Below are positions 3,811 to 62,579 of a DNA stretch of 64,000 nt, piece after piece. Made by a program: the position numbers and the translations under genes. The notes below the pieces were generated by a model, which worked only from the letters and a program-made list of their open reading frames with translations, was not told the DNA's origin and searched no databases. Every line of letters starts with the position of its first letter. The first letter of the stretch is position 1. Source of the DNA: an uncultured Alphaproteobacteria bacterium (GTDB lineage: Bacteria > Bacteroidota > Ignavibacteria > OLB7); NCBI GenBank assembly GCA_964462535.1, contig CAYWXV010000001.1:354175-418174 (forward strand). Reading direction: 5' to 3'.

Positions 3811-4520
3811 TCATCGTCGAGCAGAACCAGACGATCACCGGTCGTCTGTTCTGGCTTCCGCCCGCGAACCTCGCGAATGACGACGTCCGGCCGGTCGACA
3901 CGCGCACGATGGGGCATCGGTGCGCCTCGATGGTCACCGTCGTAGTAGTGAAGCGTTCGACCTCTAGTTGTCTGAATCATCAGGAGGGGCCCACGCCCCT
4001 CATCTTGCACGAACACCACCTCCCCCTTTCCCATTTCGCCTCGCTCCCCTGGGCTGAGCTGCGATAACACCAGTTCGAACGATGCAGTCGCAACAAGATG
4101 GTGACAGCATCGCGAAATGAATTCAACACCCGATGGCGCGCCCTGGTCCGACGGCATCATGATGGATATTGGAGTCTTTCGTCCGAGTACGCGTGAGTAG
4201 TTGACGAACGCACAGACACCCCTGGCGTACGAAACCGAGGCCGAGGTCAGGATGATCCCCCGGATTCCGAGGAGTCGTTTCAGTTTTGACTCCTGATACA
4301 ACGCCGACAACATATGTGAGGTCGGATTGATCAGAACGACAGCACCTTCGTACGCAACGAGTGTCCCGATGGTCGTCACGTCGTCCATCAGGAAGACTTC
4401 GGCGAGATGGCGCTTATCGAACCAGACTCTTTTCGTGAACATGTACCGGGCGATGAGAGAGATTGGATGTTCGCGGCTATCGACTATATCCGGTGCGGAC
4501 ACGATTCGGGGTGCTCGCAT
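3801..4520 (-). CDS. hypothetical protein (alpha/beta-like; possibly a degenerate MBL-fold relative)
   Basis: 239 aa ORF with non-repetitive, protein-like composition. Co-directional with and downstream of fur. No confident family match by eye. Confidence 0.4.
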   Translation of the reverse strand: MRAPRIVSAPDIVDSREHPISLIARYMFTKRVWFDKRHLAEVFLMDDVTTIGTLVAYEGAVVLINPTSHMLSALYQESKLKRLLGIRGIILTSASVSYARGVCAFVNYSRVLGRKTPISIMMPSDQGAPSGVEFISRCCHHLVATASFELVLSQLSPGERGEMGKGEVVFVQDEGRGPLLMIQTTRGRTLHYYDGDHRGAPMPHRARVDRPDVVIREVRGRKPEQTTGDRLVLLDDDQR

Positions 4521-5065
4521 TCGGCAAAGATCTGGAACGAATGATCCACAACTTTCAAGCCGGCCTTCTCGGCGACCTGTTTACGAATGCTGAGAAGCTG
4601 CGGATGAACGAACTCAGAGATGTGCCCGCAGATGACACAGATCAGGTGATCGTGATGCGGCTCATCAAAGCCGACTTCGTAGTAGCTCCGACCACTCCGG
4701 AAGTTGTGCTTGATGATCAAACCAGCCTTCTCCAACAGCTCCAACGTCGAGTAGACAGTGGCACGGCTGATCGACTGCTTGTCGACCACCATGGACGCAT
4801 AGAGCTCATCCGCATTGAAGTGACCAACACGATTCAGGACCGCGTCGAGAATCTTGTACCGCTCTGGCGTTGAGCGATAGTGCCCGTTTGCCAGAAATCG
4901 TTGAAAGGTCTTGAGCGCCTGCTGCTTCAACTCGTCACTAAGCACGCGATCCGATTCCAACAGAGCTTTCGACTCCAACTCGTCGACCGGGACTGAATTT
5001 TCCCTGTGGTCGGTCTGAGTTGTCTCGCGACGGACTGTGGTTCGCTGGGTACCTGCCTGTTTCAT
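4484..5065 (-). CDS. fur: Fur family transcriptional regulator
   Basis: C-terminal HHDHLICVICG...CEHPESCPH metal-site motifs and a winged-helix region (ERYKILDAVL). Carries a ~45 aa N-terminal extension, so the true start may lie further in. Confidence 0.85.
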   Translation of the reverse strand: MKQAGTQRTTVRRETTQTDHRENSVPVDELESKALLESDRVLSDELKQQALKTFQRFLANGHYRSTPERYKILDAVLNRVGHFNADELYASMVVDKQSISRATVYSTLELLEKAGLIIKHNFRSGRSYYEVGFDEPHHDHLICVICGHISEFVHPQLLSIRKQVAEKAGLKVVDHSFQIFAECEHPESCPHRI

Positions 5066-5086: not shown

Positions 5087-7462
5087 TCACGAACGGATGT
5101 GTGCGTGGGCCGAACCTGGTGGCATGGATGTGAGGCCCTCGGCAACCTGCTCGGGGGCGGCATCCCCAATGACGAGCGCAACTTCGCGACGCCTGCGAAC
5201 AATGGCAAAAGCAAATCCACCGACCATGATAATCACGCCGGCCCAGACGAAGGAGATGAACGGTTTGACCGACACGTCGACTACGACAACGGGTTTTGAG
5301 GGGGGTGATGGCCGCGAAGACGACTTGAATGCAAGCACAACCTGCGAGTTCGCGAGGTTCTCTTGATCGCTGACGATCCCGGCCATGCCGACCGAAACAT
5401 CGGTCCCCGCAATCTTTTTCGGAATATAGGCGCCTGTCGACATCACATATTCCGTGGTTACGAAGAACGAGGTATCGGGCCGCGTAATCTCCAGAATCGC
5501 ACTCTGTTTCCCCTCGGTCTGGGCTCGACTCATGTCGAAGCGCTCGAAGCGAACCGAGATTGTTGAGTCAAACGGAACAGCAGCCCGTTCGCCCTTGCGC
5601 AGCTGTGCAGTTGGGTCACCACCATCGTCTTCAAGAGCCTTCGGGGAAACGTAAATGTCTCTGGATGGGTAGTAGAGAATACCCGGCTCCAGGAAGGGCG
5701 TCTCGCGCTTGTTGAAGTCACTTAGAAAAGTGACGGGACCGACGGTGTACGTGTCGTCGCCCCGCTTCAGCACAATGTTGTGCCGGTACTTCTCACGATC
5801 GGTCTTCTCGAGTTCGGTCCTTTCGGGACCGGTATACGTTGCCGTATAGTCGAACACTTTGGTGGGGACACCCTGGACCAATCGAACGTGCTGTGTTTCG
5901 GTATACCGTGCTGTGAATATGATGCCGAGCATCATGAGCGAGACGCCGGCGTGCGAAATGTATGCACCGATGAATCGAGGGTTCCCTCGGACAACGCGAG
6001 CGCCAACTTGCGTGTTGACAACGATGGCCAGAATGGACCCGAAGCCCAACGCAAGGTAGATGGGATCCGCAACTCCAAGGGCGAACAATCCGATCGTCCC
6101 GAGCAACGCGATACCCCCAGCGATCCACATTCCCTTCGCGAATTCCTCCCTCTCCGTGTTCCTCCACTTCAAACGCATGCTGATGCCATTCAGAAGGACG
6201 ATGGCGAGCGCAATGGGTAGATGAAGGTTGTTATAGAAATCGGTGGGTACAGCAGCCTTTGGCTTACCTATGAGCGGCATGATTAGCGGCCACGAGGTTC
6301 CAATCAGCACGACCGTTGAGGACGCAAGCAGCACCGCCGATCCAATCGCCAACGCGTTCTCGCGTGACAATAGTGGGAAGCGAATTGGGGCCTGTTGAAG
6401 CTCCTTCCAACGCATCAGCAGCAGGCCGAAGCCCAGGCCCAGAAACGTGAGGAGAATCACCAGCAACACGAAGTAGACGAAACCACCCGGTGATACGAAG
6501 CTATGCACAGAGGTATCGCCTAGGACACCGGAGCGCGTCAGGAAGGTCGAGTACAGGATCAAGCCCCATGCGGCAACGGCCAGCGCAAAATTTGTCCGCA
6601 CCAGACCACCCACGCGCATCTGGTCGCCAGGCTTCCTCGGAATGGCCCCGGTCCGCTTCTGTACAAGCATTGTGTGAACAAGCGCGACGCATGCAAGCCA
6701 CGGTATCAGGCTCGAGTTTTCGACGGGATCCCACGCCCAGAATCCTCCCCATCCAAGCGTCTCGTAGGCCCACCATCCACCCAGCATGATTCCAAAACCG
6801 AGCGCCATCGACGCAAAGAGCGCCCATGGCAACGATATCGTGATCCATCGTTGGTAATCGCGTTTCAGTAGCCCTGCAACAGCGAAGACAAACGGGACCG
6901 TCATAGATGCGAAGCCGAGGAAGAGTATTGGGGGGTGAATCGTAATCCAGAGGTTTTCCAGCTGTGGATTCAGGCCTCTTGGGGTCGGAATGAAGTCAGC
7001 GGGGATCTTCTCGTCGGGGAACGACTGAAAGATCGTGTGAAACGGAGACTTCACCGTCAGGATGACGAGCAGGAGCGAAATCACAAGCATGAGGGGGATC
7101 ATGGTGTGTGTCTCGTACCCAACTCGCTGCGAGTAACTGTAGACGAAGATCCCGATGATGCAGGTCATCAGCGTCCAGAGCATGAAACTTCCCTCCTGCC
7201 CTGCATAGAAAGAGGCTATCTGGAGCGGGCGCGAAAGGTTGCCAGAGGAATGCTGGTAGATGTACGTGAACTGATACTGGTGCGACAGAATCAAATACAT
7301 CAGGTACGCCGAAGCGCCCAGGAACGTGACGACCGAGAGGTGGAAGCAGGTTCGCGCTACCTGAAGGTCGCGGTGATCCTGTCGTCGCAGCGTCAGTACA
7401 TACGCCACCAACGAAGCAAGCGCGGATGCCAGTGACGCGGAAATCGCGAATGATCCAAACAT
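5087..7462 (-). CDS. ccmF: cytochrome c-type biogenesis protein CcmF (heme lyase)
   Basis: 791 aa polytopic membrane protein. WWD domain WWAYETLGWGGFWAWDPVENSSLIPWL. The N-terminus follows the CcmF pattern (...QHSSGNLSRPLQIASFYAGQEGSFMLWTL). Confidence 0.85.
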   Translation of the reverse strand: MFGSFAISASLASALASLVAYVLTLRRQDHRDLQVARTCFHLSVVTFLGASAYLMYLILSHQYQFTYIYQHSSGNLSRPLQIASFYAGQEGSFMLWTLMTCIIGIFVYSYSQRVGYETHTMIPLMLVISLLLVILTVKSPFHTIFQSFPDEKIPADFIPTPRGLNPQLENLWITIHPPILFLGFASMTVPFVFAVAGLLKRDYQRWITISLPWALFASMALGFGIMLGGWWAYETLGWGGFWAWDPVENSSLIPWLACVALVHTMLVQKRTGAIPRKPGDQMRVGGLVRTNFALAVAAWGLILYSTFLTRSGVLGDTSVHSFVSPGGFVYFVLLVILLTFLGLGFGLLLMRWKELQQAPIRFPLLSRENALAIGSAVLLASSTVVLIGTSWPLIMPLIGKPKAAVPTDFYNNLHLPIALAIVLLNGISMRLKWRNTEREEFAKGMWIAGGIALLGTIGLFALGVADPIYLALGFGSILAIVVNTQVGARVVRGNPRFIGAYISHAGVSLMMLGIIFTARYTETQHVRLVQGVPTKVFDYTATYTGPERTELEKTDREKYRHNIVLKRGDDTYTVGPVTFLSDFNKRETPFLEPGILYYPSRDIYVSPKALEDDGGDPTAQLRKGERAAVPFDSTISVRFERFDMSRAQTEGKQSAILEITRPDTSFFVTTEYVMSTGAYIPKKIAGTDVSVGMAGIVSDQENLANSQVVLAFKSSSRPSPPSKPVVVVDVSVKPFISFVWAGVIIMVGGFAFAIVRRRREVALVIGDAAPEQVAEGLTSMPPGSAHAHIRS

Positions 7463-7482: not shown

Positions 7483-7845
7483 CTAGTGAATGGTCATGCC
7501 TGTGGCGTGAAAGTAGTCTCCGTGCGAATGCCCCGATACCGAGACGGACACCTTCCCCTTGTACGCATTCTTGATGTCGGCCACCGACACCGGATCCTGT
7601 CCAGCATACTGGACCCTCGATGCCGTCCCCCCTGCATCCTTCATTGTAAACACGAGATCGCCATCCGCGTCCTCGACCTGATCAGAGGCAATCGTGCCGA
7701 CGACGATCACCTTCTTCTTCGAGTCGTTTACGGAAGCGGCCTGGCTGAATGTGAGCTCCGGAATGTCGACCGTGGCCAATCCATACCACGTCGTCAGGCC
7801 CGCAATGAGCACGAACGCCACGATGAACACGCTTCTTCTTGTCAT
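7483..7845 (-). CDS. CcmE-like heme chaperone paralog (His-type, truncated immediately after the His)
   Basis: OB-fold core (VIVVGTIASDQVEDADGDLVFTMKDAGGTASRVQYAGQDP) aligns with CcmE. The C-terminus reads GHSHGDYFHATGMTIH-stop, so the protein ends at the position of the heme-binding His and has no downstream Tyr. Start taken at Met21 (7845) of the ORF to avoid overlap with the upstream paralog. Confidence 0.55.
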   Translation of the reverse strand: MTRRSVFIVAFVLIAGLTTWYGLATVDIPELTFSQAASVNDSKKKVIVVGTIASDQVEDADGDLVFTMKDAGGTASRVQYAGQDPVSVADIKNAYKGKVSVSVSGHSHGDYFHATGMTIH

Positions 7846-7861
7846 TACATTCCCGGTAGTG

Positions 7862-8257
7862 TCAGCTTCCACTCTGCTTCTCAAATCCGGACGCATCCGA
7901 CTCATACTTCGACGGGCACTTCGTCAGAATGCTGGAGCAATGGAATGTGTTGTTCTCGACATATCCCGTCGCAACCATTGAGGTCGCCAATTCAAAGTTG
8001 TTTGGCTTGGCACCATCGTACTGCACCTGCATTGTACCACCCTTGTCGTCCCGCATGGTGAACTGGAAGAGGTTGTTCTGTGAATCGTACTGAGTCCCCT
8101 TGTTCTTGACCCAGGTCCCTGCAATCTGGACTTTGCGACCAGTCGATGCTGCGGATACGAAATCGGAGTATTCGATCTTCTTGTTCTCTAGCGTCAACAC
8201 CGTCGTGACCACAACGAGCATTGCCGCCAGCATTCCTATTACATACTTCATTCGCAT
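7862..8257 (-). CDS. ccmE: cytochrome c maturation heme chaperone CcmE, CXXXY variant
   Basis: 131 aa. N-terminal TM anchor and OB-fold core. C-terminal motif LTKCPSKYE (C-P-S-K-Y) sits where E. coli has LAKHDENY, i.e. the Cys-type CcmE described for archaea and Desulfovibrio. Confidence 0.85.
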   Translation of the reverse strand: MRMKYVIGMLAAMLVVVTTVLTLENKKIEYSDFVSAASTGRKVQIAGTWVKNKGTQYDSQNNLFQFTMRDDKGGTMQVQYDGAKPNNFELATSMVATGYVENNTFHCSSILTKCPSKYESDASGFEKQSGS

Positions 8258-8278: not shown

Positions 8279-8443
8279 CTACCGTACTGAATCGTGACCA
8301 TTCGCTTGCACCACACGTGCCAGACTCGATTCCATCTTGCGAAGCCTTGCGTCAAGGCGGAGCAGATAGAACAGGACCCCCAGCATTACGATCAATGCCA
8401 CGACCAGCGCGGCGAACATTGAGTGATCTATGAAGAACTGCAT
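8279..8443 (-). CDS. ccmD: heme exporter protein CcmD (small membrane protein)
   Basis: Not in the ORF track (54 aa). Hand translation gives MQFFIDHSMFAALVVALIVMLGVLFYLLRLDARLRKMESSLARVVQANGHDSVR: one TM helix followed by a basic tail, located between ccmC and ccmE as in canonical ccm operons. Confidence 0.5.
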   Translation of the reverse strand: MQFFIDHSMFAALVVALIVMLGVLFYLLRLDARLRKMESSLARVVQANGHDSVR

Positions 8444-8448
8444 CGCTG

Positions 8449-9576
8449 CTATACCTCATTCCGAATTGTTGAGTGTTCAATATCCTGCAGCTGTGGCGCT
8501 GAGGTCTCTCGATCCGCCTCTTCTCCGGCAATCACTCGTCGCGCAAGACGATGATTCGCAATGGCCATTCGGACCGATACATTCACCGTCCAGAAGAAGA
8601 GGAGCGAAATGCTGAGCATCGAGAGCCCAAAGAGAATCTGCTTTACTGGATTGAGGGCGTCGGTATCGCTCGAGAGCACGGGACCACTATCTCCGCTCCC
8701 CATCGATCCCGGATGCAAACCGGCCTCGGTTCTTGGAAAGATGAAGATGAAGTATACCACGGGTAGGGCCAGAAGAAGGAGATAGACGGCCGACAGCCGT
8801 TTGCGGAGTTCTTCATCGCTCAACGCCGAGCGGAGGGCGAAATAGGCAGCGAAGATCACAAGGGTCGCAAAGATCGACACCTGGCGCGGATCGAAACTCC
8901 AGAATTCACCCCATTGCAAACGGGCCCAGAATGAACCCGAGACGGTCGCCAGGACACAGAAGAGAAGCCCGGCGGCGGCAGTCCCGGCCGCCTTCAGATC
9001 GTCCTCGGCGTCCTTCTTCCTGAGGTAGCGCATGCCAAAGAACGCAGCCACAAACCATGCTAGCGTCGCCACCCATGCGGCCGGAACGTGGAAATAGAGA
9101 TTCCGGGCCGTCTCCTCCAGTTGAGCGTTCAACGGAATCGTTGCAAACGGATTGACGTCTGACACGCGGCGCGCGTGGAAGTACCCATCGTCTTCGACGA
9201 ATCGGGAAACAAGAATGACCACGTCGCCAACGCGAAAGGGGAATCGCCCAGCCTCAAAGATCTCCCCCTCTGGTACCACCTCGTCCGTCTCCCCTCTCGA
9301 GTCCTTCAACAGGATCGTCGGCCTGGTGGAGGTCGGTAGCTCAACGACCGTCCCCTTGATCGACATCTCCGCGGTCGCCCCCCTATTCTTGGCCACTCTC
9401 TTTGCTGCGCCAAAATCGCCACCTGTTGGAATCGTAAAGACGAGGACGACGAGTGCAACATTGAGGAACACCGTCATCCATCGCCACCACGATGGATTCG
9501 GTCGCGAGAGTCCACCGGGCCAGAGCCCCAACACAACCCCCAGAATCGTGCCACCGGCGATGATTAGCGCCTTCAT
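8449..9576 (-). CDS. ccmC: heme exporter protein CcmC with N-terminal CcmE-like OB-domain extension
   Basis: The C-terminal ~225 aa carry CcmC hallmarks (YFHVPAAW; WWD motif LQWGEFWSFDPRQ). The N-terminal ~150 aa add two TM helices and a soluble domain (MSIKGTVVEL...RVGDVVILVSRFVEDDGYFHARRV) that resembles the CcmE OB core but has no His/Cys heme motif. Confidence 0.7.
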   Translation of the reverse strand: MKALIIAGGTILGVVLGLWPGGLSRPNPSWWRWMTVFLNVALVVLVFTIPTGGDFGAAKRVAKNRGATAEMSIKGTVVELPTSTRPTILLKDSRGETDEVVPEGEIFEAGRFPFRVGDVVILVSRFVEDDGYFHARRVSDVNPFATIPLNAQLEETARNLYFHVPAAWVATLAWFVAAFFGMRYLRKKDAEDDLKAAGTAAAGLLFCVLATVSGSFWARLQWGEFWSFDPRQVSIFATLVIFAAYFALRSALSDEELRKRLSAVYLLLLALPVVYFIFIFPRTEAGLHPGSMGSGDSGPVLSSDTDALNPVKQILFGLSMLSISLLFFWTVNVSVRMAIANHRLARRVIAGEEADRETSAPQLQDIEHSTIRNEV

Positions 9577-9582
9577 TTGGTA

Positions 9583-10257
9583 TCAGTCTCTCCAGAGATA
9601 GTCAAACAGGAAGTATCCAACGATAATGATTGCTGCGCTGTAGGCGGCCAGGAGCGCGATGTCGTCGCCGAGACTGGAAAAGGCGACCACCGACACCGTT
9701 CGGCGTATCAGGTCGACGCCAAGCAGAATTGTTGGCAGCAAGACCGGGAAGGCAAGGACAGGATACAGGGCCCCCTTGGCGCCGGCGCGAGCGATCAACG
9801 CCGCAATGAGCGTGAGTGCGCCGGCAAACGCAAAGCTCATCAGCACAACGACAAGAGCGAACGGAAGCGGAGATCCGATGCCCCGATCCGCAATCATGAT
9901 CGCGAAGAGGAACGCGAGGGCCCCGTTACCCAGCACGGCCAGAATGAGGTTGACACCAAGCTTTCCGACGAAGACGGGCGTGGGAGGAAGGAGGTGACGG
10001 AGCAGAAGCGAGGTCCCACGCTCCTCCTCGCTCACAAACGTCCGGGCGAGTCCGGTAACACCGGTGAAGAACATCGCGGTCCAGAACAGACCGGCTATAA
10101 CACCATTCGACAGACGTTCGCCCCAAGAACCAAAGGCCATAACGGAGACCACCACGACCACGAACATGCCCAGGGCATTCAGCGCATATCGGGTCCGAAA
10201 TTCGCCTCGTAAGTCCTTGCGTGCGACCGCAAGTGATTGCCGGAGGAGGGATGGCAT
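9583..10257 (-). CDS. ccmB: heme exporter protein CcmB (ABC permease)
   Basis: 224 aa, six TM helices, typical CcmB length and hydrophobicity. Immediately upstream of ccmC on the same strand. Confidence 0.75.
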   Translation of the reverse strand: MPSLLRQSLAVARKDLRGEFRTRYALNALGMFVVVVVSVMAFGSWGERLSNGVIAGLFWTAMFFTGVTGLARTFVSEEERGTSLLLRHLLPPTPVFVGKLGVNLILAVLGNGALAFLFAIMIADRGIGSPLPFALVVVLMSFAFAGALTLIAALIARAGAKGALYPVLAFPVLLPTILLGVDLIRRTVSVVAFSSLGDDIALLAAYSAAIIIVGYFLFDYLWRD

Positions 10258-10488: not shown

Positions 10489-12543
10489 CTACCGCATTAC
10501 TTCAACCGCGCTCGACTCGACATATCGCCCACCCACCGAAAGCACGATGAAGTATCTTCCTGCACCTGCGCTACGCCCCAATCCATCGTTCCCATCCCAT
10601 CGCGTCGAATAGGTCCCACGACGGTGCTCGCCACAAACGAGCCTGCGAACAATCTGGCCGCGAATGTCGACCACGGTGAGGTCAACCAAACCTGACTCGC
10701 CTGCAACATAGCGTACTTCGGTCCCCTCCGTGAGCGGGTTGGGTACACACGATTCGATCCGCGTCGGCCCCAAGGAGATATCCTGCTCGAGCACGCCAAT
10801 CGTGTACCGGCCGAACAAACGTCCATACCCGGCCGCCAGAGAGTCGGCGAGGTCAAGATCGGAGCGCTCGTTCCACAGCCCGTAGTACCGGTCCTGCGTT
10901 CCGAACGCGGGCGCCTCCGGCGTGGAAGCGGCGGAGTTGCGTGAGCCCCGTCCATTCCGATGGCAACTTTCCGAGCACGTATTCAGCATTCCTCCTCTGA
11001 AATCACCGGCGTAGTCCAACGTCAGCGATGGAGGGAGCACTTTGAATCCGTGACTACTGAACTCGTACAGCCGTTTACCTGGAAGATCGACGAACCCGAT
11101 TGAGGCCGTCTTGGTGAAATGGCAATTGACGCACTGGGAAACCGCCTGATCGTGTTGTGAATGTAGGTTGACGATTCGGCCACCCCTCGCGAGGCTTGGC
11201 CCCGTGTCCCTCATGTCCGGGTGGCACGCACCGGCAACACAACCCGCGTTGGAATCAAGGCTATACCAGTTCCGGTTGAGCTGATACGGCAGCTCACCCC
11301 CGAACGAAGAATCGTATTTGTTGAAGTGAATCGTGTGACAACTCCAACATCCATTCGAGAAGACCTGGCGCGAATGGGGGACCGAAGTCCTGTAGTCCTG
11401 TCCCGTCTGATGATGCGCATACGAGGTGGTGTTATCGGCCCACGTCTGCCTACCGGTCACGGAATCCCGTCTGAACTGCCCGAGGGACACGCCTGGGACA
11501 TAATGTTGTGGTGTCGCATCATCGTACGCGAATGGATGCTTCCCCATCGTCGAAACGTATCGTTCGTGGCACTGGCCGCACAGATCAAGCTTGAGTTCCG
11601 TCCCCATGTACGTTCCGGGGAATTGAGCACTCTTGCCGGGTGACACAATGTTGTCTGACGTAGGTTGGGCAACGTGTTGGGATCCAGGTCCGTGGCAACT
11701 CTCACACCCGATCACGATGTTGGCATCGCGGGCCATCGAATCGGTCCCATACGATCCAGGATACTGGACGGTGAACACGTCGGCCGTATCAGCACGATCC
11801 ACCGTCAGCGTCGCGCCGTTCACATGACACGGGGCGCACGCCTCGTGCCAACTCTGCTTCCTGAATGTCGGAGACGTGAACTCGTAAAACCTTCCTTCGC
11901 CGGTGAGCGTGTCGATATCGAACCACCTCTTGAAGTCGAGGAAATAGAATGCCCCACCGTGCTCCGACCGCTGCTTGTAACCCGGGAGTGCGAATTGAAA
12001 TGGTGGGATATAGTAGCGGCCATCAATATCGACCAGGAATCTCTCGATCCAGGCACGCCCTCCGTATGTATACGCGACCCTCATGGGTGGCGTCGAGTCG
12101 CCCCCCCCGCTGAAGGACAATTGTATGGCGTAGTCCCGACCAATCCCCTGCTTGAAAAGTCGGATTCTGAGTGTGTCGCGTCCCGGGTAGCGAATCTGCA
12201 CGACCGGGGTAGAAATCATAGTGTCGCGCTCAAACATGCGGTCCAGTATCACCGTCTCAGGTGTTGGACGGAGATGGATCTGCTGGTGCACGGTCTGCTT
12301 GAAGAGGACAAGACCCTTGTAGTCGCTCGTCCCGGAGTAGCCTGCGAAGTGGCAGGCGGCAGTGACGCAGGTCTGTTGTCCAACGTACTCGCTAGGGCCG
12401 GGTCCGTCGAACGACTGCAGGGTGGTTACCCGGGTCAGCAATGCTGCGCCCGTCACCAACCCAACAAGTAGGATGAGCCTGTTCAATGTCACGACGTGTT
12501 TGTTCGAGCTACAGGCATGCGCCTTAACGAAAGAGGGACGCAT
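10489..12543 (-). CDS. octaheme c-type cytochrome with T9SS C-terminal sorting domain (paralog A)
   Basis: Signal peptide, five CXXCH motifs (CAPCH, CESCH, CGQCH, CWSCH, CVNCH), two CX4CH (CVTAACH, CVAGACH) and one CX3CH (CSESCH). C-terminal type-A T9SS CTD (CVPNPLTEGTEVRY...GTYSTRWDGNDGLGRSAGAGRYF...VEVMR). Confidence 0.8.
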   Translation of the reverse strand: MRPSFVKAHACSSNKHVVTLNRLILLVGLVTGAALLTRVTTLQSFDGPGPSEYVGQQTCVTAACHFAGYSGTSDYKGLVLFKQTVHQQIHLRPTPETVILDRMFERDTMISTPVVQIRYPGRDTLRIRLFKQGIGRDYAIQLSFSGGGDSTPPMRVAYTYGGRAWIERFLVDIDGRYYIPPFQFALPGYKQRSEHGGAFYFLDFKRWFDIDTLTGEGRFYEFTSPTFRKQSWHEACAPCHVNGATLTVDRADTADVFTVQYPGSYGTDSMARDANIVIGCESCHGPGSQHVAQPTSDNIVSPGKSAQFPGTYMGTELKLDLCGQCHERYVSTMGKHPFAYDDATPQHYVPGVSLGQFRRDSVTGRQTWADNTTSYAHHQTGQDYRTSVPHSRQVFSNGCWSCHTIHFNKYDSSFGGELPYQLNRNWYSLDSNAGCVAGACHPDMRDTGPSLARGGRIVNLHSQHDQAVSQCVNCHFTKTASIGFVDLPGKRLYEFSSHGFKVLPPSLTLDYAGDFRGGMLNTCSESCHRNGRGSRNSAASTPEAPAFGTQDRYYGLWNERSDLDLADSLAAGYGRLFGRYTIGVLEQDISLGPTRIESCVPNPLTEGTEVRYVAGESGLVDLTVVDIRGQIVRRLVCGEHRRGTYSTRWDGNDGLGRSAGAGRYFIVLSVGGRYVESSAVEVMR

Positions 12544-12609
12544 GCAGGATCGCGTATAGCACCTGATGCGCCCCTCAGCTGAGATTCGTGATGGACGTCC
12601 GAACCAACC

Positions 12610-14607
12610 CTATCTCACGAGCACTACTTGCTCCCCGGTCATCACACCGTTGGAGCTGAGCATTCGAACGAGGTAGGTGCCATTCGGGAGCATATGCCCT
12701 CCGTCGTCAGACCCGTACCACACGCACGTATAGGTGCCCCGGTCATGATCGGAGGCGATCAGCGTTCGAACACGCGCGCCGTTCGTGTTGAATATCTGTA
12801 TGGAGACGGCGCCCGGAACGGTAACGTCGTAACGAATCTCGGTCCGGTTCACCATAGGGTTCGGCGCGATCGTCTTGAGACCAGACCCACCACCCGCATG
12901 CGCGGAAAGACGCACACCTCCGACACTCGGCCAGAAGTCCTTGTAGTACTTCAGCAGCGAGTCAGCCAACCTCTTGTCCGTGATCTCTCCCCACAGCCCG
13001 ATTAGCTGGTCGTTGATACCGAACGAAGGAGCGACCGGTGTCGAGTCTGCAAAATTCCTCGAACCCCTGCCATTGCGGTGACAGCTTGCCGCACATGTGT
13101 TCATCATTCCAAGACCACCCGTGTTGAAGTAGTCTATCGTGATCTGAGGCGATAAGACGCGGAAGTTGTGGTTGCTGAACTCCTGAAGTGGCTTCTGCGG
13201 CAGATCGACGAATCCAATGGATGCTGTCTTGGTGAAGTGGCAGTTGACGCATTGCGATATCTCCTGCGCGTGTTGCGTGTGGAGATTGACCATCATGCCG
13301 TTGCGAAGAGGGCTCGGCCCGACCTCGCGCTTATCAGGGTGACACCCGGACGCAACGCATCCCTGGTTCTCGGCGAGACTATACCAGTTCCGATCAAGCT
13401 GGTAGGGTAGTTCCCCGCCAAACGAGGAGTCATACTTGTTGTAGTGAACAGTATGACAACTCCAGCAGCCGTCCGAGAAGACGTGCGCCAGGTAGGGTTT
13501 CGAGAAACGGAAGTCCTGACCCGTCTGGTGGTGCGCGTACGACGTGACCCCATCCGGCCACCTGTTCATTCCGGTCAGTGAGTCCTTCTGGAAGAGTCGG
13601 AGCGATGAGCCTGGGATAAATGGCTGATCGTTGACTTCATCGTATGCAAAGTTATGTGTCCCACCCGTCGACTTGAACCGCTCGTGACATTGCCCGCAAA
13701 GGTCAAGCTTGAGATCGATGCCGGCCGGCGTCCGGGGAAACTGGCTGCTCTTACCCGGGGAGACAATGTTCTCGGCGGTTGGATTTGCAACGTGCTCCGA
13801 TCCGGGCCCGTGACAGCTCTCGCACCCGATCAGGATGTTCTCGTGCAAGGCCAGAGAATCGGCTCCATCCGATCCAACGAAGTTGAGCGTATAGATCTTC
13901 GCTGTATCACCATCCACGTACGAACGCGTCATACCGTTTATGTGACACGAGGCGCATTGCTCATCCCATGCCTGCTTCTTGAAGGTCGTGGAGCCGAACT
14001 CGTAGAAGACCCCCTCCTGGTTTGACTGGTCGATGCCATACCACTTGCTGAAGTCCAACCAGTAGAACCAACCACCTGTGTCTGCCCGCTCCTTGTACCG
14101 CGGAAGCGAATACTGGAACGGCGGGACGTAATGCCGGCCATCGACTTCGACCAGGTATCGTTCAATCCATCCGCGACCGCCGTAGGTAAATGCCACCTTC
14201 ATCGCGGGCGTGGAGTCACCGCCACCAGAAAAGAAGAGCTGTACGTAATAGTCCTTCTTGTCAGGACTCTTGAAGAGGCGGGCGTTCAACGTGTCGCGTC
14301 CAGGATATCTGATCTGAACGATCGGCGTCGAGATCACCGTGTCCTTGTCGAACATCCGATCGATCACCACCGTCTCTGGTGTTGGGCGCAGGTGAATCTG
14401 CTGATGGAGGGTCTTCTTGAACTCGGCCAGCCCCTTGTAGTCGCTGGCACCGCTATACCCCGATTCATGACAATTGGCCGTGACGCACGTCTGCTGACCC
14501 ACGTATTCACGAGGCGCAGGTCCAGGTTTCGAGTCCACGCTGAACGCGAACGCAGCAACGCCTGCGACGGCGATCGCAAGCGACGCAAGAAGTTTGGGAC
14601 GTTTCAT
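12610..14607 (-). CDS. octaheme c-type cytochrome with T9SS C-terminal sorting domain (paralog B)
   Basis: About 70% identical by eye to paralog A over long stretches, with the same eight heme motifs (CVTANCH, CASCH, CESCH, CGQCH, CWSCH, CVASGCH, CVNCH, CAASCH). Signal peptide MKRPKLLASLAIAVAGVAA; the start is trimmed to that Met (14607). T9SS CTD ends ...NGTYLVRMLSSNGVMTGEQVVLVR. Confidence 0.8.
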   Translation of the reverse strand: MKRPKLLASLAIAVAGVAAFAFSVDSKPGPAPREYVGQQTCVTANCHESGYSGASDYKGLAEFKKTLHQQIHLRPTPETVVIDRMFDKDTVISTPIVQIRYPGRDTLNARLFKSPDKKDYYVQLFFSGGGDSTPAMKVAFTYGGRGWIERYLVEVDGRHYVPPFQYSLPRYKERADTGGWFYWLDFSKWYGIDQSNQEGVFYEFGSTTFKKQAWDEQCASCHINGMTRSYVDGDTAKIYTLNFVGSDGADSLALHENILIGCESCHGPGSEHVANPTAENIVSPGKSSQFPRTPAGIDLKLDLCGQCHERFKSTGGTHNFAYDEVNDQPFIPGSSLRLFQKDSLTGMNRWPDGVTSYAHHQTGQDFRFSKPYLAHVFSDGCWSCHTVHYNKYDSSFGGELPYQLDRNWYSLAENQGCVASGCHPDKREVGPSPLRNGMMVNLHTQHAQEISQCVNCHFTKTASIGFVDLPQKPLQEFSNHNFRVLSPQITIDYFNTGGLGMMNTCAASCHRNGRGSRNFADSTPVAPSFGINDQLIGLWGEITDKRLADSLLKYYKDFWPSVGGVRLSAHAGGGSGLKTIAPNPMVNRTEIRYDVTVPGAVSIQIFNTNGARVRTLIASDHDRGTYTCVWYGSDDGGHMLPNGTYLVRMLSSNGVMTGEQVVLVR

Positions 14608-14804
14608 AAGGCAACGGCAGGGAATTGATGGAGAATGACCGAGCGGGGACCGTCGGCCATTCAAGGCTGAGCGTGGGGGCATGGGGGTGCGTCACGACAA
14701 ACCGGCACTTCTCGCATGCAGTGTTCCAACCGGCCCCAGCGTCTCCACTATGAAAGACACACCAGGCAGTCAGAGGTCGCGCGCCTGATCTCAGATATGT
14801 TGAT

Positions 14805-15683
14805 CTATCGGACTACAGTCAGGCGCCGTGAGAGCGTCCGACCACCTTGAGACATCACGTAAATGTACTCCCCCGCGGGGAGTGATGAAACTACGACGTC
14901 CACTGAGAACGAACCGGGCTCGACGAAACGATCAAACGCTGTCAGCAGGCGATTGCCGGCAAGGCCGAACAATTTAATTGTCACTTGACCCGACTCTTTC
15001 ACAGCGAAGGGAATCATAGTGTTTCGGCTACATGGATTTGGCAGATTCTGCGCCAGTGACATCCCAGTGGGAGGCGCCGAGTCCGTATCCGCACTGGCCG
15101 GCTGCGTATCGATCGTGACGGTGTTGTCACCATCGAATGAGGCGCGGAACTTCCGTAATCCATTCCTGACTGTGCCCGTTCTGGGGGCATCGCGATCGCC
15201 CGCCGGTGGTGTGATCCATGTCCCATCGGGCTCAAAGTTGCTCCCCTGATGACAACAGTGGAAACGGAACTCGAGCGGATCGAAGCTCACCTGGTAATCA
15301 TTCCCATGCGGACAGTACGTTGAAACCGCCGTGAACGCATTCTCCCCCACATCCGCGACACGTGTCACCGCTATCGGGTACCATCCTCTCTTGCACGAAA
15401 ACGCCTCGGTCTCGGCTCTCAACGACGCGGATCCGAGCTCCACGTGATCCGGGTTCAGCAGGAGTTCCTCATCTCTGATCAGTTTGATTGACCCGCCCAC
15501 CTGCGCGAGATCAGGGTAATCGCTCAACCGGATCTGAATCAGCGTGGACAGCTTTCCGGGCACGTCGCCTGGTAGTGAAAGCCGTCCCAGCACGACACCG
15601 CGCGCTGCAACGGAGACGACCACAAGACCGGCAGCCCGCTTGAGGAAGTCCCGTCGGGAATCATCGGCAGTATTCTCCTTCAT
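14805..15683 (-). CDS. Rieske-like [2Fe-2S] domain protein with Tat signal and T9SS C-terminal domain
   Basis: Twin-arginine signal SRRDFLKRAAGLVVV. Rieske-like box I CPHGN; after 15 residues comes HCCHQGSNFEPDG, where a canonical protein would have CPCHGS. C-terminal T9SS CTD (LAQNLPNPCSRNTMIPFAV...GEYIYVMSQGGRTLSRRLTVVR). Start trimmed to the Met preceding the RR motif. Confidence 0.55.
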   Translation of the reverse strand: MKENTADDSRRDFLKRAAGLVVVSVAARGVVLGRLSLPGDVPGKLSTLIQIRLSDYPDLAQVGGSIKLIRDEELLLNPDHVELGSASLRAETEAFSCKRGWYPIAVTRVADVGENAFTAVSTYCPHGNDYQVSFDPLEFRFHCCHQGSNFEPDGTWITPPAGDRDAPRTGTVRNGLRKFRASFDGDNTVTIDTQPASADTDSAPPTGMSLAQNLPNPCSRNTMIPFAVKESGQVTIKLFGLAGNRLLTAFDRFVEPGSFSVDVVVSSLPAGEYIYVMSQGGRTLSRRLTVVR

Positions 15684-15820
15684 CGCCACGTACTTTATCA
15701 TCCGAGGACCAGCCCGAGAGAGGCGCAATTGCGCTGAGCGTGCCCCTTTCTTGGAAGACCCTGATCATACCAATTGGTTACCGAACCCGGTCACCTGGAA
15801 ACGTCTCGAAACGATTGCGT

Positions 15821-20266: not shown

Positions 20267-21811
20267 ATGCCTAGATACATAGAACCATCATATGCCCCCA
20301 ATCGAATGATGCGCCTGGCGTGCACGCTCGCGCTCCTTGTCCTTGTTGTATCACAATGGGGCATGGCGCAAGGGTCGGAATATACATTGGTCTACACTTC
20401 GACTATCACGGTGGGCAACTACGCCGGCGACGCCGACGTGGTGGAGTGTCGTGTACACGACAACGGCATGACTTCCCATCCAGTAGACACTCCGCGGGCA
20501 ATTGCAGCTCAAACGATACGCGAGTTCGAACCAAGCGCAGCGGCCATCTGTCCTGGGGGATATGTGCTTGCGTACACGGTTGAGCGTCGCGACTCGGCTG
20601 GGAACATCGATCGCGACGTGTATGCGCGACGAGTGGACTCGACTGGTTCCGATGTATGGTCAATCGACGGCCATCCGGTTGCCGTGATCGCGCAGTCACG
20701 TGTCATTGAGGAGCATCCAACCGTCCTCGCGTTGTCGGACGGGTCGTTCTTGATCGCCTATGAAGTCCGATATGGGCTTGCACGCGCAGCTGATGTAGAC
20801 ATAGCTGTCAGTCACGTTTCTGCCGACGGATCCCCCGTCGGATCCCCGTTCTGGGCCGTGAAGTCCAAGAAGGTCGAGCGAATAGCCTCCCTTGTTTCCA
20901 ACGGGAGTGACGGGGCCTACCTGGTTATCAACGTTGAAGTCTACCGTGACACCACGCTCACCAACGCCGACGTGGTCCTGCAGCGAATCGCATCTGATGG
21001 TGTTGTCGGATGGAAGGACTCGCCCGATCCGGTATCTGTTGCCACATCAAAGCACTTCGAGAGAAATGCCGTCGCGACTGCCGACGGTCAACATGGAGTT
21101 TACATCGCATACGAGCTGGAGTACGTGGGCGAAGGGCGGGATGGTGAAGTGGATATCCTCGCGCAGCGAATCGGTGAGTTTGGGCGTCGAATGTGGATCG
21201 ACGACGCATCGCTCCCCATCGTCAGCTCGTCCCCAAAGGCTCACGAAACGGAGCCAGTCATAGCAAATGTCGGGAGCGGGATCATTGTCGCATTCGAGTT
21301 CAACAGCGTTGCTGCGAGAGGAAAGGGAATCTCAGCAATCGGGCTTCAGTACCTGGACACCAACGGGCACCCAATGTGGAACGAAGGTCGGCGCTCGAAA
21401 CTCCTGGGTGTCACTGGCTCCACCGTTTCCAATCCATTAATAGCGAGCGACAACCGCGGTGGAGCATTCGCTCTGTTCGAGGCACTGGATACGGCGACGG
21501 GGAACAGGGATGTCGCTCTCCAGCACGTGACGGCGATTGGTGAAGAACTCTACGGCGACGGAAACGGCGCGATCCCTGTGTTCGATAGTGAGGAAAGCGA
21601 ATCCAAGGCCGCAATGACGACCGACCCCGCGGGGAACGTCACGATCTTTGCCGTTCGCGAGCCGAACGTAATTGGACCCGGTGCCTATACAGCCCTTGTC
21701 GGCGCCCGACTATCGTTCGATGGAGACAGATTGTGGGCAGATGGTCCGCGTGTGGTCGTCACGACGCCAACCGTCAAGTCGAGACCGTTGGTTCTGCAGT
21801 GCAGGTGGTAG
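20267..21811 (+). CDS. secreted repeat protein (about 7 x ~45-aa blades, probable beta-propeller)
   Basis: Signal peptide LALLVLVVSQWGMAQG. Recurring motif D[VI]xxQR[IV]...G...W (DVYARRVDSTGSDVW, DVVLQRIASDGVVGW, DILAQRIGEFGRRMW, DVALQHVTAIGEELYGDG...). No T9SS CTD. Confidence 0.5.
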   Translation: MPRYIEPSYAPNRMMRLACTLALLVLVVSQWGMAQGSEYTLVYTSTITVGNYAGDADVVECRVHDNGMTSHPVDTPRAIAAQTIREFEPSAAAICPGGYVLAYTVERRDSAGNIDRDVYARRVDSTGSDVWSIDGHPVAVIAQSRVIEEHPTVLALSDGSFLIAYEVRYGLARAADVDIAVSHVSADGSPVGSPFWAVKSKKVERIASLVSNGSDGAYLVINVEVYRDTTLTNADVVLQRIASDGVVGWKDSPDPVSVATSKHFERNAVATADGQHGVYIAYELEYVGEGRDGEVDILAQRIGEFGRRMWIDDASLPIVSSSPKAHETEPVIANVGSGIIVAFEFNSVAARGKGISAIGLQYLDTNGHPMWNEGRRSKLLGVTGSTVSNPLIASDNRGGAFALFEALDTATGNRDVALQHVTAIGEELYGDGNGAIPVFDSEESESKAAMTTDPAGNVTIFAVREPNVIGPGAYTALVGARLSFDGDRLWADGPRVVVTTPTVKSRPLVLQCRW

Positions 21812-28389: not shown

Positions 28390-28561
28390 TGCGGGTCGCG
28401 GAAATGAAGTGGGAGGAGAACGCGCATCGCGGGGATGACCCCGGTACGCACCAAGGGGTTGGGTGTCGTTGAATGTACACCGGCGGGTGTCCTTGTCAAA
28501 GCCGACACCGCGGCAACAGAGTTGATCACCACGTGGCGCAGGCGAATGCCTATATTCGGGC

Positions 28562-29080
28562 ATGCATCGGATCAACTTCGCCCGAAACGCGGGTCTCCCT
28601 TCTATAGATGCCGGCTCGTTGAGATCGGCCTTGCGACAATTCGCGTCCGGAGTCACAATTGTCACTGCGGCGCATGAAGGAACGCTTTCAGGAATCACAG
28701 TCTCGGCGTTCAGCTCGATCTCACTAGAACCGCCGATCGTCATGGTCTCCATCAACAGCGAAAGCTCGCTCGTCGAGAACCTCCTTCAAGCGGAACATTT
28801 TGGAGTGAACGTGCTCCATGCATCTCAGGAGGAGCTTGCGCGGCGGTTCGCAGAGTCCATCCCCCCCAACGAAAAGTTCGATGGAGTGCAACTCGAGTTC
28901 GGCCGCAGTGGAGCACCGCGAATTGTCGGCGCCGTTGCCTGGCTCGATTGTGTTCTCGATCAGTCATTGAGAGTCGCAACGCACACACTGATGTTTGGAC
29001 GCGTTGTGGAGACGGTTACGCTCGACCATCCGGACGACCCCCTTCTCTACTACTTCAAGCACTATCGTCGACTGGCCTGA
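28562..29080 (+). CDS. flavin reductase family protein (NAD(P)H:FMN oxidoreductase domain)
   Basis: 172 aa. FASGVTIVTAAHEGTLSGITVSAFSSISLEPPIVMVSI is typical of HpaC-like flavin reductases. Confidence 0.75.
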   Translation: MHRINFARNAGLPSIDAGSLRSALRQFASGVTIVTAAHEGTLSGITVSAFSSISLEPPIVMVSINSESSLVENLLQAEHFGVNVLHASQEELARRFAESIPPNEKFDGVQLEFGRSGAPRIVGAVAWLDCVLDQSLRVATHTLMFGRVVETVTLDHPDDPLLYYFKHYRRLA

Positions 29081-41121: not shown

Positions 41122-41349
41122 TCAAGGTGGAGGCGTATTTTTCAGCGTTTCCCGCAGATGCCCTGCCTCCATTCCCGTGACCACACCGCAACGCTTCAGA
41201 GCGTTGTACGTGGTCGTTGGCTTTCCCATAAGGACCCTGGGTCTCCGGAATCCCTCATCGTCATCGTAATCGTGCGGATCGAACGAGCGCGTAACCCACA
41301 ACACCCCAAGCTCGAAACGACCGGCGTTACATAACAGAAACAGCATCAA
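41122..41349 (-). CDS. small hypothetical protein (about 75 aa)
   Basis: The internal-Met part of ORF 41122..41472 (MLFLLCNAGRFELGVLWVTRSFDPHDYDDDEGFRRPRVLMGKPTTTYNALKRCG...). The upstream part of that ORF is antisense to the start of the 41349 gene. No family recognised. Confidence 0.25.
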   Translation of the reverse strand: MMLFLLCNAGRFELGVLWVTRSFDPHDYDDDEGFRRPRVLMGKPTTTYNALKRCGVVTGMEAGHLRETLKNTPPP

Positions 41350-56035: not shown

Positions 56036-56081
56036 AGGTATATTCTTGATCGATCTTTCCTGGTTGTTCCTTGCGAAGGAG

Positions 56082-56096
56082 GCCCAATATAGCCCT
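56082..56096 (-). promoter_or_regulatory. conserved 15-mer GGGCTATATTGGGC-containing element upstream of the E1 gene (promoter -10 candidate)
   Basis: The exact 15-mer gcccaatatagccct is shared with 41042..41056 upstream of ssb. It contains a TATATT -10-like hexamer and lies 47-61 nt upstream of the E1 start. Confidence 0.35.
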
Positions 56097-56136
56097 CGCA
56101 CATCCAACCTGCCACGTTCACTCAGTAACGGCCCGC

Positions 56137-60156: not shown

Positions 60157-60185
60157 TTGCCGTGCGACGGTTCCGGGGTTATATT
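60157..60185 (+). promoter_or_regulatory. sigma70-like promoter candidate for tRNA-Ser (-35 TTGCCG, 17 nt spacer, -10 TATATT)
   Basis: TTGCCG at 60157..60162, a 17-nt spacer, and TATATT at 60180..60185. The tRNA 5' end is 18 nt downstream of the -10. Confidence 0.4.
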
Positions 60186-60202
60186 GAACCACTCAAGCGC
60201 TT

Positions 60203-60284
60203 GGAGGGCTCGCATAATGGTATTGCAGCGGTCTTGAAAACCGCCGGGCGCAAGCCTGTGGGGGTTCGAGTCCCTCGCCCTCCG
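60203..60284 (+). tRNA. tRNA-Ser (anticodon TGA)
   Basis: Hand fold: acceptor ggagggc/gccctcc, D-arm, anticodon stem gcggt/accgc with loop cuUGAaa (U33, A37), a 15-nt variable arm (type II), T-arm ggggg-ttcgagt-ccctc, discriminator G. CCA is not encoded. Lies inside the N-terminus of ORF 60162..60956. Confidence 0.85.
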
Positions 60285-60347
60285 CTCCTGTTTTCCAAAG
60301 ATTCCGTCGCGTCAATCCCGACGCCAGTTCACGCTTACATTCTCCGA

Positions 60348-61762: not shown

Positions 61763-61819
61763 TAAGCAGTATTTGAAAAAGTAGAATCTAGCCAGCTTAC
61801 TATTCGGAGGCACAACATC

Positions 61820-62545: not shown

Positions 62546-62579
62546 GTTGCTGCAACGGCTTAGCGGTAGTGAACGTGGT

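Follow-up and report, generated by a model that had tools for sequence, protein, structure and literature searches.

Predicted type IX secretion domains on OcwA-like octahaem cytochromes and a Rieske-like protein encoded next to a ccm operon

A locus of a Kapabacteria-like bacterium, contained in the 64-kb window (the whole 64,000-nucleotide stretch of DNA that was analysed), may encode redox proteins that are loaded with their cofactors in the cell envelope and then exported by type IX secretion (the T9SS) for electron transfer at the cell surface. We put the probability of this whole chain at about one half. We are considerably more confident of one part of it, namely that both cytochromes of the locus are T9SS-tagged, OcwA-like cytochromes, which we regard as very probable. 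The genes lie on the minus strand in the order Rieske-fold gene, cytochrome B, cytochrome A, ccmB, ccmC, ccmD, ccmE, ccmE-like and ccmF, and a Fur-family gene comes last; all are co-oriented, and the gene content, orientation and order claimed in the first-pass annotation of this DNA were confirmed.

Cytochrome A (10489..12543, minus strand, 684 amino acids) is a tandem paralogue of cytochrome B (12610..14607, minus strand, 665 amino acids from the true start; the long ORF extends to 14682). The two are 59% identical overall, and the same eight haem motifs, five CXXCH, two CX4CH and one CX3CH, are present in both as candidate sites. All eight were found to be invariant or nearly so in an alignment of 74 homologues, and all eight align with eight of the nine CXXCH sites of OcwA from Thermincola potens (PDB 6I5B), the CX3CH and both CX4CH motifs falling on ordinary CXXCH sites of that protein. 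Because the three oddly spaced sites align in this way, the label "octahaem" that had been given to the cytochromes is reasonable, although only five of the eight motifs have the canonical spacing. Cytochrome B begins with a putative Sec-type signal and haem 1 (CX4CH); next come a beta-rich domain, then haems 2-8 and a short helical region, and the T9SS domain is last. Inspection of the cytochrome N-termini identified a basic N-region and then a hydrophobic stretch (for example, MKRPKLLASLAIAVAGVAAFAFS), and no lipobox cysteine was found in the signal region.

The nearest solved relatives of the cytochromes are OcwA and OmhA; no other surface reductases of Gram-positive bacteria have a known structure. 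OcwA, from an electroactive Gram-positive bacterium, is a characterised terminal reductase of the cell surface and can also reduce nitrite and hydroxylamine (PMC6703420). The haem-site alignment and the fold of the window cytochromes are OcwA-like. An additional beta-sheet domain, common to OcwA and MccA (PMC6703420), is likewise present in them. OcwA has been shown, and the cytochromes described here are predicted, to face outward. The identity between them is, however, only 22%. The unmatched OcwA site lies within its residues 33-126 and is haem 2 by sequence order. Thus, of the two high-spin, open-coordination haems of OcwA (2 and 5), the first is missing from this eight-site family, whereas the second has a counterpart with the identical motif, CGQCH. 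Furthermore, the beta-rich segment inserted between haems 1 and 2 far exceeds that of OcwA in size, the C-terminal three-helix bundle of OcwA is reduced, and a T9SS C-terminal domain has been added. Unlike OcwA, these cytochromes would have to cross an outer membrane, because the host is diderm. OmhA of Carboxydothermus ferrireducens (PDB 6QVM) has eleven haems, is S-layer-associated in a monoderm host and lacks a T9SS tag; shearing released it from cell surfaces, and it was also recovered on biogenic magnetite (PMC7829351).

One interpretation of this kinship is that the cytochromes are exported by the T9SS but, instead of being respiratory mineral reductases, work at the surface or as secreted enzymes that reduce or detoxify soluble substrates. 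Examples of such substrates would be nitrite, hydroxylamine, NO and sulfur oxyanions, which NrfA, MccA and the octahaem reductases handle and OcwA can handle. OcwA belongs structurally to the NrfA/c554/MccA group, but its turnover of nitrite is very slow (kcat 1 per minute; PMC6703420). The cytochromes gave weak Pfam and NCBIfam matches to Cytochrom_C552 and NrfA. Several homologues are in Chlorobi-named genomes, which presumably come from nitrogen-removal reactors, and analogous tagged cytochromes of Bacteroidia come after a NarL-type two-component system. Because the OcwA family consists mostly of soluble-substrate enzymes and the haem 5 counterpart is retained, a catalytic role is as compatible with these proteins as mineral reduction. 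On the other side, neither CXXCK nor any other hallmark catalytic motif was found in the cytochromes, and nine non-motif histidines conserved across the 74 homologues would permit bis-His ligation of all eight haems. An extracellular reductase of soluble substrates would also need electrons to be brought across the outer membrane. We consider this interpretation, with soluble compounds rather than minerals as substrates, unlikely.

The Shewanella decahaem cytochromes MtrC, OmcA and MtrF do the job proposed here, as outer-face cytochromes of a diderm cell that acquire haem from Ccm in the periplasm before they are taken through the outer membrane. They are lipoproteins that reach their site by way of the type II system and are connected through the MtrAB porin-cytochrome. 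Neither a Shewanella-type lipobox nor such a conduit was seen at this locus, and neither a porin-cytochrome nor any different conduit for electrons through the outer membrane was seen near it. This speaks against surface electron transfer, in that, if the cytochromes are surface-located, some carrier must bring electrons across the outer membrane. Membership of the MtrC/OmcA family itself was considered and rejected (PF22113 scores of 21.7 and 23.8 against a cutoff of 30; TIGR03507 matched by 1/74 members; eight haems; no lipobox).

The three redox proteins had been described as carrying T9SS C-terminal domains. The putative domains occupy 14808..15062 in the Rieske-like gene (about residues 214-298), 12613..12870 in the cytochrome B gene (about residues 580-665) and 10492..10743 in the cytochrome A gene (about residues 601-684), all on the minus strand. 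With TIGR04183, whose curated cutoff is 23 bits, the Rieske-like protein scored 24.7 bits and cytochrome B scored 23.0 bits from its true start (22.9 as the long ORF), whereas cytochrome A, at 16.8 bits, was under the cutoff, and PF18962 was under its cutoff in all three. The profile search that had been suggested as a check thus bears out the tag directly in two of the three proteins with one model and in none with the other. Pfam FlgD_ig was passed by both cytochromes (30.5 bits for cytochrome A).

These borderline scores leave room for a different view, in which the Ig-like C-terminal domain is not a secretion signal and the proteins are periplasmic respiratory or electron-storage cytochromes, co-transcribed with a general Ccm system as its major clients. 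The generic Ig-like family FlgD_ig outscores TIGR04183 in both cytochromes, and the adjacency of the ccm genes fits a periplasmic client. Moreover, the T9SS core genes (sprA/sov, porV, porU, and porK-N or gldK-N) were not found among the ORFs of the 64-kb window, nor were T9SS components found by NCBIfam scans of the unannotated ORFs of the window and of the related locus L010. An OmpA-domain protein in L010 is not PorE, since it scored 17.8 bits where the cutoff is 600.

The family-level and structural evidence argues against this view. Counting matches at E<=1e-3, TIGR04183 was matched by 70/74 members of the cytochrome family (best E 1.8e-11), and a Rieske-like relative in L011 scored 35.3 bits. 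The domain invariably forms the very end of the protein, and the C-terminal domain of the Rieske-like protein has its PNP and G-x-Y motifs and its basic final strand in common with four others in the window. The predicted C-terminal domains superpose at 2.0-2.4 Å on the bona fide T9SS domains of mirolase, NucA, PorU and PorZ, which places them in the beta-sandwich fold of the type A domains; these structural matches settle the identity of the domain. Between cytochromes A and B, the C-terminal domains are only 28% identical, against 59% for the overall proteins, which fits a signal that is constrained in fold and motifs only. Two further window proteins, one with BNR repeats and the other an S8 peptidase, are typical secreted T9SS-type cargo and end in a matching type A tag, which is the only indirect support for T9SS machinery in this genome. 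The known type A cargo (gingipains, mirolase, NucA and ChiA) has the same C-terminal family match and fold, and a putative N-terminal export signal is present here as well. Because the tag is conserved across both the cytochrome and the Rieske-like families, its chance co-occurrence with them is excluded. The claim of T9SS domains on all three proteins therefore stands, despite the window scores, and we consider periplasmic cytochromes with a domain of some other function very unlikely.

The Rieske-fold protein (14805..15701, minus strand, 298 amino acids; the first-pass annotation started it at 15683) carries a textbook twin-arginine motif, SRRDFLK, although TIGR01409 gave 14.9 bits against a cutoff of 16.7. 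It has the Rieske fold, but its match to Pfam Rieske (PF00355), at 16.2 bits, is under the gathering threshold of 20.3. Its ligand motif is C-P-H x16 C-C-H. Box II is thus C-x-H, whereas the [2Fe-2S] Rieske subunits of bc1 and b6f and the arsenite oxidase small subunit AioB, which lack the T9SS tag of this protein, have the canonical C-x-x-H. Since C-[C/P]-H replaces C-x-x-H, and does so in 12/12 close homologues, the box II histidine comes one residue early, and in the alignment to 5cxm a Q is found at the position of the canonical ligand histidine. The sub-threshold Pfam score and the non-canonical box II make the cofactor uncertain. The earlier description as a Tat Rieske-like protein is supported by the motif and the fold and not by either family score. 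Neither a partner cytochrome b nor a partner molybdoenzyme accompanies it. With 34 cluster representatives in a set of 1.84 billion proteins, the family is rare. Its gene lies next to the cytochromes in the window and in L009, and also in L011, where it is divergently oriented; two Bacteroidetes metagenome-assembled genomes have it without a cytochrome, and a metagenome scan with its profile returned three loci and no new cytochrome adjacency. Other Bacteroidota also encode Tat-Rieske proteins with a T9SS tag.

Downstream of cytochrome A are, all on the minus strand, ccmB (9583..10257; Pfam CcmB, 39.6 bits), ccmC (8449..9576; Pfam Cytochrom_C_asm, 72.9 bits, and a TIGR01191 match), whose product has an N-terminal extension of about 150 amino acids, and ccmD (8279..8443; a 54-amino-acid ORF, with a CcmD_alt match on the identical Logan gene). 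The CcmE gene (7862..8257; Pfam CcmE, 59.9 bits) encodes a protein of the Cys type, ending in ...TKCPSKYES (CxxxY), which we take to be the "variant System I" tail, as in archaea and Desulfovibrio. It is followed by a gene for a CcmE-like OB-fold paralogue (7483..7845; 120 amino acids; 24% identity to CcmE over 96 amino acids, E 5e-8) and by ccmF (5087..7462), which encodes a CcmF/NrfE-family haem lyase (CcmF_C, 110 bits; Cytochrom_C_asm, 90 bits; partial matches to TIGR03145 and TIGR00353). The paralogue has no Pfam CcmE match and no haem-binding tail. Its gene is kept in most syntenic loci and is absent from L010. Thus, ccmB, ccmC, ccmD, one ccmE and ccmF were correctly named, whereas the supposed second ccmE is a divergent paralogue. 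A canonical System I comprises ccmA-H with a His-type (HxxxY) CcmE; here, ccmA, ccmG and ccmH were not found in the operon.

The order cytochrome-ccm-Fur is conserved across Kapabacteria and Ignavibacteria genomes, and in several distinct genomes it is kept even with a differing upstream flank. In related genomes, the cytochrome-ccmBCDE-E'-F-Fur block is flanked by conserved housekeeping synteny (ETF, ruvB, nadC, purF and ftsK), and so the ccm operon looks like a general Ccm system; its adjacency, therefore, says little about the function of the cytochromes. The operon had been read as a dedicated haem-maturation operon, and its three redox neighbours as one extracellular electron-transfer module. 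The T9SS tags, the putative export signals and the kinship with OcwA and OmhA speak for that reading, but the housekeeping synteny speaks against a dedicated operon, and the three-gene unit breaks up, given that in some relatives a single cytochrome stands without the Rieske-like gene and that the latter also occurs without a cytochrome. In other words, the neighbourhood is conserved as cytochrome-ccm-Fur, and the Rieske-like gene is a rare add-on to it.

The Fur-family gene (4484..5065, minus strand; Pfam FUR, 108.8 bits) comes after ccmF in every related locus examined, and, the fold being that of a surface multihaem reductase, one could envision a Fur-controlled, extracellular assimilatory ferric reductase that solubilises Fe(III) for uptake, but this is improbable, as eight-haem proteins would be costly under iron starvation, the locus has no iron transporter, and Fur beside a haem-handling operon may simply link cytochrome maturation to iron supply.

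We return to export by the T9SS for surface electron transfer. In this scheme, cytochromes A and B would cross the inner membrane by Sec, and their eight haems would be attached in the periplasm by the adjacent Cys-type Ccm (CcmBCDE, the CcmE-like paralogue and CcmF). The Rieske-fold protein would gain its metal centre in the cytoplasm and cross folded by Tat. The folded holoproteins would then be recognised by their type A C-terminal domain and cross the outer membrane through the SprA/Sov translocon, after which the tag would be cleaved and the protein attached to the surface or released. Transport of folded proteins through the outer membrane has been described for the T9SS (PMC9251779), which makes cofactor-loaded cargo plausible. 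Outside, the cytochromes may function as outward-facing terminal oxidoreductases like OcwA and OmhA, giving electrons to or taking them from acceptors that are insoluble or chelated, such as flavins, humics and minerals of Fe(III) or Mn(IV), and with possible action on small N-oxides at the counterpart of the open-coordination haem 5 of OcwA. The Rieske-like protein might be an optional partner or entry point.

Two sources describe known T9SS cargo as hydrolases, adhesins and motility proteins and as Sec-dependent (PMC12618676; PMC9251779), and a 2023 review of T9SS effectors does not mention cytochromes, cofactors or Tat. In the present case, cytochromes with covalently attached haem and a metalloprotein exported by Tat would be carried. 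Our literature search, with many subscription journals outside it, found no publication linking the T9SS to multihaem or c-type cytochrome cargo and none dealing with the T9SS in Kapabacteria or OPB56. We tentatively suggest that the T9SS is a general route by which cofactor-loaded redox proteins reach the cell surface in Kapabacteria, Ignavibacteria and some Bacteroidia, with cargo that would include Ccm-matured multihaem cytochromes and Tat-exported Rieske-type iron-sulfur proteins. The latter would imply a Tat-to-T9SS relay. If this is true, haem- and metal-loaded electron carriers join the list of T9SS cargo, Tat-dependent entry is added to a pathway described as Sec-dependent, and Bacteroidota would have their own extracellular electron-transfer architecture that is distinct from the proteobacterial type II/MtrCAB and porin-cytochrome systems. 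It would also give a concrete answer to how Bacteroidota-lineage bacteria, which are common in sediments, aquifers and nitrogen-removal reactors, could expose multihaem cytochromes.

Genomes of Marinilabiliales and Bacteroidales encode independent tagged multihaem cytochromes (TIGR04183, 49.8 and 34.2 bits), and further ones occur in P0097-P0099. A contig scan for CESCHGPG, a pattern common to many multihaem cytochromes, returned one true family member (L012) among the matches listed. Scans of the locus for promoters, terminators and a -7 box were uninformative. About 100 homologues of the cytochromes are publicly labelled just "T9SS type A sorting domain" or "FlgD Ig-like domain" proteins, and, because they bear these labels alone, their cytochrome nature is masked in public annotation.

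On the minus strand between 4.4 and 15.8 kb of the window lies a run of co-oriented genes; genes predicted separately on identical Logan contigs served as a cross-check. The run comprises genes for a Rieske-like protein (298 aa; 14805-15701), cytochrome B (665 aa from its true start; 12610-14607) and cytochrome A (684 aa; 10489-12543), then ccmB (9583-10257), ccmC (8449-9576), ccmD (54 aa; 8279-8443), ccmE (7862-8257), a CcmE-like gene (7483-7845), ccmF (5087-7462) and a Fur-family regulator gene (4484-5065), with Pfam and NCBIfam matches confirming ccmB, ccmC, ccmE, ccmF and the Fur gene. The observation of the first-pass annotation, that redox proteins bearing C-terminal T9SS sorting domains (tags) are encoded upstream of ccm genes, was confirmed, all of the genes being found co-oriented.

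Cytochromes A and B (59% identity) each contain five CXXCH, two CX4CH and one CX3CH sites at matching positions. They had been described as octaheme cytochromes, and the count of eight sites holds, although only five of the eight are canonical CXXCH. A protein search returned approximately 100 clusters of full-length homologues with 37-67% identity, and in an alignment of 74 homologues all eight haem sites are invariant or nearly invariant and nine more histidines are conserved. The best solved relative of the alignment profile is OcwA of Thermincola (6I5B; E 3.3e-13), and the next is OmhA of Carboxydothermus (6QVM). All eight sites, the three irregular ones included, pair with ordinary CXXCH sites of OcwA in the profile alignment, whereas one haem site of OcwA, the second in sequence order, has no partner in the window cytochromes. 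We place the probability that cytochromes A and B are T9SS-tagged and OcwA-like at roughly 0.85. Public annotation of the family does not show its cytochrome nature, and NCBI names several homologues 'T9SS type A sorting domain-containing protein'. Membership of the MtrC/OmcA group was rejected, as scores against its family models fall short of threshold.

Experiments have characterised OcwA as a terminal reductase of the cell surface, with a haem arrangement of the NrfA/c554/MccA type and high-spin haems 2 and 5 (PMC6703420), and OmhA was the sole cytochrome obtained by shearing of cell surfaces and from biogenic magnetite (PMC7829351). OcwA also shows weak activity on nitrite and hydroxylamine (PMC6703420). 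One could envision that the window cytochromes are enzymes acting on soluble substrates, and this is a serious rival to surface electron transfer because the counterpart of the catalytic haem 5 of OcwA (CGQCH) is kept in them.

Taken singly, the TIGR04183 scores of the window proteins are borderline. Of the three redox proteins, the Rieske-like protein (24.7 bits) and cytochrome B from its true start (23.0 bits) reach the cutoff of 23, and cytochrome A (16.8 bits) lies below it. FlgD_ig passes in both cytochromes; PF18962 is below its cutoff in the Rieske-like protein and cytochrome B and is not reported for cytochrome A. TIGR04183 nevertheless matches 70 of the 74 cytochrome homologues (best E 1.8e-11), and we regard this family-level support for a predicted tag on the cytochromes as decisive. 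The tags of cytochromes A and B share 28% identity, against 59% for the whole proteins, as would be expected of a signal that is constrained solely in its fold and motifs. A 1071-aa BNR-repeat protein (25540-28755, minus strand; TIGR04183 26.1 bits, PF18962 28.8 bits) and a 716-aa S8 subtilase (56071-58221, plus strand; TIGR04183 21.4 bits) end in the same tag, with a PNP motif, a G-x-Y motif and a basic last strand, so that five tagged proteins are encoded in the 64-kb window. A periplasmic role of the cytochromes, which their position beside the ccm genes would fit, is less likely than either display at the surface or activity on soluble substrates.

The link between the cytochromes and the ccm genes is real. 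Two 'Chlorobi'-named assemblies (L005, L006), a JGI contig (L009), a Logan contig (L010) and a genome that goes by the name Ignavibacteriae or Ignavibacteria bacterium (L011) all carry the block cytochrome(s)-ccmB-C-D-E-(E')-F-Fur, with one or two adjacent cytochrome copies per locus. Most of these loci share the housekeeping synteny of the window (ETF, ruvB, nadC, purF, glycosyltransferase, ftsK); in L010 the upstream flank differs and cytochrome-ccm-Fur is retained. Because the block lies within this housekeeping synteny in related genomes, the operon looks like a general Ccm system, and the proposal that it is dedicated to the tagged proteins was not upheld. In addition to the two cytochromes next to ccm, the L011 genome has a third paralogue at another site (L012, 9941-11977; Ignavibacteria bacterium HK-STAS-BACT-82, contig JACKAE010000001.1). 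Its neighbours are an ECF sigma factor and tagged proteins, among them a DUF11/DUF7619 protein whose T9SS tag is strong (36.1 bits). The named cytochrome homologues come from metagenome-assembled Kapabacteria, 'Chlorobi' or Ignavibacteriae genomes, and the window RuvB shares 74-78% identity with proteins that bear the name Candidatus Kapabacteria or Kapaibacterium; on these grounds, the source organism is assigned by sequence to a Kapabacteria-like member of Bacteroidota.

The CcmE tail, ...TKCPSKYES, is of the CxxxY (Cys-type) haem-binding form and not HxxxY, and neither ccmA, ccmG nor ccmH was found in the window's ccm operon, which we take to resemble the 'variant System I' of archaea and Desulfovibrio. 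Two ccmE genes had been reported. One is ccmE; the second encodes an OB-fold paralogue that is CcmE-like but divergent (24% identity to CcmE, E 5e-8), has no haem-binding tail and is kept in most of the syntenic loci examined. CcmC (375 aa; 344-377 aa in related loci) has an extra N-terminal region of approximately 150 aa, consisting of one membrane helix and a soluble domain, before its Cytochrom_C_asm core. The Fur-family regulator has an N-terminal extension of approximately 55 aa, and its gene follows ccmF in all related loci examined (L001, L004-L006, L009-L011), which suggests a tie between iron status and either cytochrome maturation or the cytochromes themselves. A Fur-linked role in iron acquisition, to which this neighbour might point, is a less likely alternative.

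At the start of the Rieske-like protein is a canonical twin-arginine motif, SRRDFLK, that is kept in its homologues. Its candidate cluster-binding site has the form C-x-H/C-x-H. The family is rare, with 13 clusters in a set of 5.8 billion proteins and 34 representatives when 1.84 billion were searched exhaustively with HMMER. Its gene lies next to the cytochromes in the window and in L009, and also in L011, where it is divergently transcribed, and a further contig likely carries both; L004-L006 and L010 lack it, and in two Bacteroidetes genomes it occurs without the cytochrome and adjoins a thioredoxin-like [2Fe-2S] ferredoxin. Given this variation among loci, the protein is an accessory whose link to the cytochromes is recurrent and not obligatory. 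Distant relatives of approximately 250-270 aa combine a Tat motif, a canonical C-x-H...C-x-x-H domain and a strong TIGR04183 tag (up to 42.6 bits in metagenomic proteins P0145, P0154, P0161 and P0163, whose Rieske domain is bc1/b6f/AioB-like), so that proteins with all three features form a recurring class. If such proteins are secreted, a Tat-to-T9SS route is implied, which is absent from the T9SS reviews we read. Beside Rieske-like paralogues and the ferredoxin in two Bacteroidetes MAGs are proteins of approximately 137 aa (L007, 9295-9711; L008, 9243-9656) that comprise nothing but a (Tat-like) signal joined by a short linker to a T9SS-type C-terminal domain; they may derive from a Rieske-like gene by loss of its core, or be separate tag-only proteins.

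In the model that we propose, the apocytochromes would reach the periplasm by Sec and receive their haems there from the adjacent Cys-type Ccm system, and the Rieske-like protein would be exported folded via Tat. The type A tags would then be recognised by T9SS, leading to surface display or release and to an outward-facing transfer of electrons in the manner of OcwA and OmhA. T9SS is reported to move proteins in the folded state through the SprA barrel, which is very large (PMC9251779), and holoprotein cargo would therefore be feasible. Its substrates are described as Sec-dependent (PMC9251779; PMC12618676), and a 2023 review of T9SS effectors does not mention Tat, cytochromes or cofactors. 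No T9SS core genes were found within the 64-kb window, and no outer-membrane electron conduit is visible at the locus. We consider the chances of the full model to be evenly balanced. The earlier interpretation as a T9SS-exported redox module is partly supported: the tags speak for it, as does the kinship of the cytochromes with OcwA and OmhA, and the dedicated ccm operon is not upheld. The components (OcwA-like cytochrome, type A T9SS tag, Rieske fold, Ccm) are of known kinds; their combination was not found in full-text literature searches.

Strong T9SS tags also occur on multihaem cytochromes unrelated to this family: one with eight CXXCH in a Marinilabiliales MAG (L076, 8345-9856; 49.8 bits), one with nine or ten haems in a Bacteroidales MAG (L056, 5697-8381; 34.2 bits) and metagenomic proteins P0097-P0099 (38.7-45.2 bits). 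The L076 and L056 genes are each immediately preceded by genes for a HAMP-PAS-HisKA_3 kinase and a NarL/LuxR-type response regulator, and after the L076 cytochrome come two further proteins with tags, one transglutaminase-like and the other an M28 peptidase.

Elsewhere in the window, ORFs at 60162-60956 (plus), 61673-62704 (minus) and 63085-63951 (minus) have no NCBIfam match, and those at 41349-42548 and 20267-21811 (both plus) match neither NCBIfam nor Pfam. The last, of 514 aa, has equal-sized unannotated genes at the corresponding syntenic place in the 'Chlorobi' loci L004-L006, a match of size and position only.
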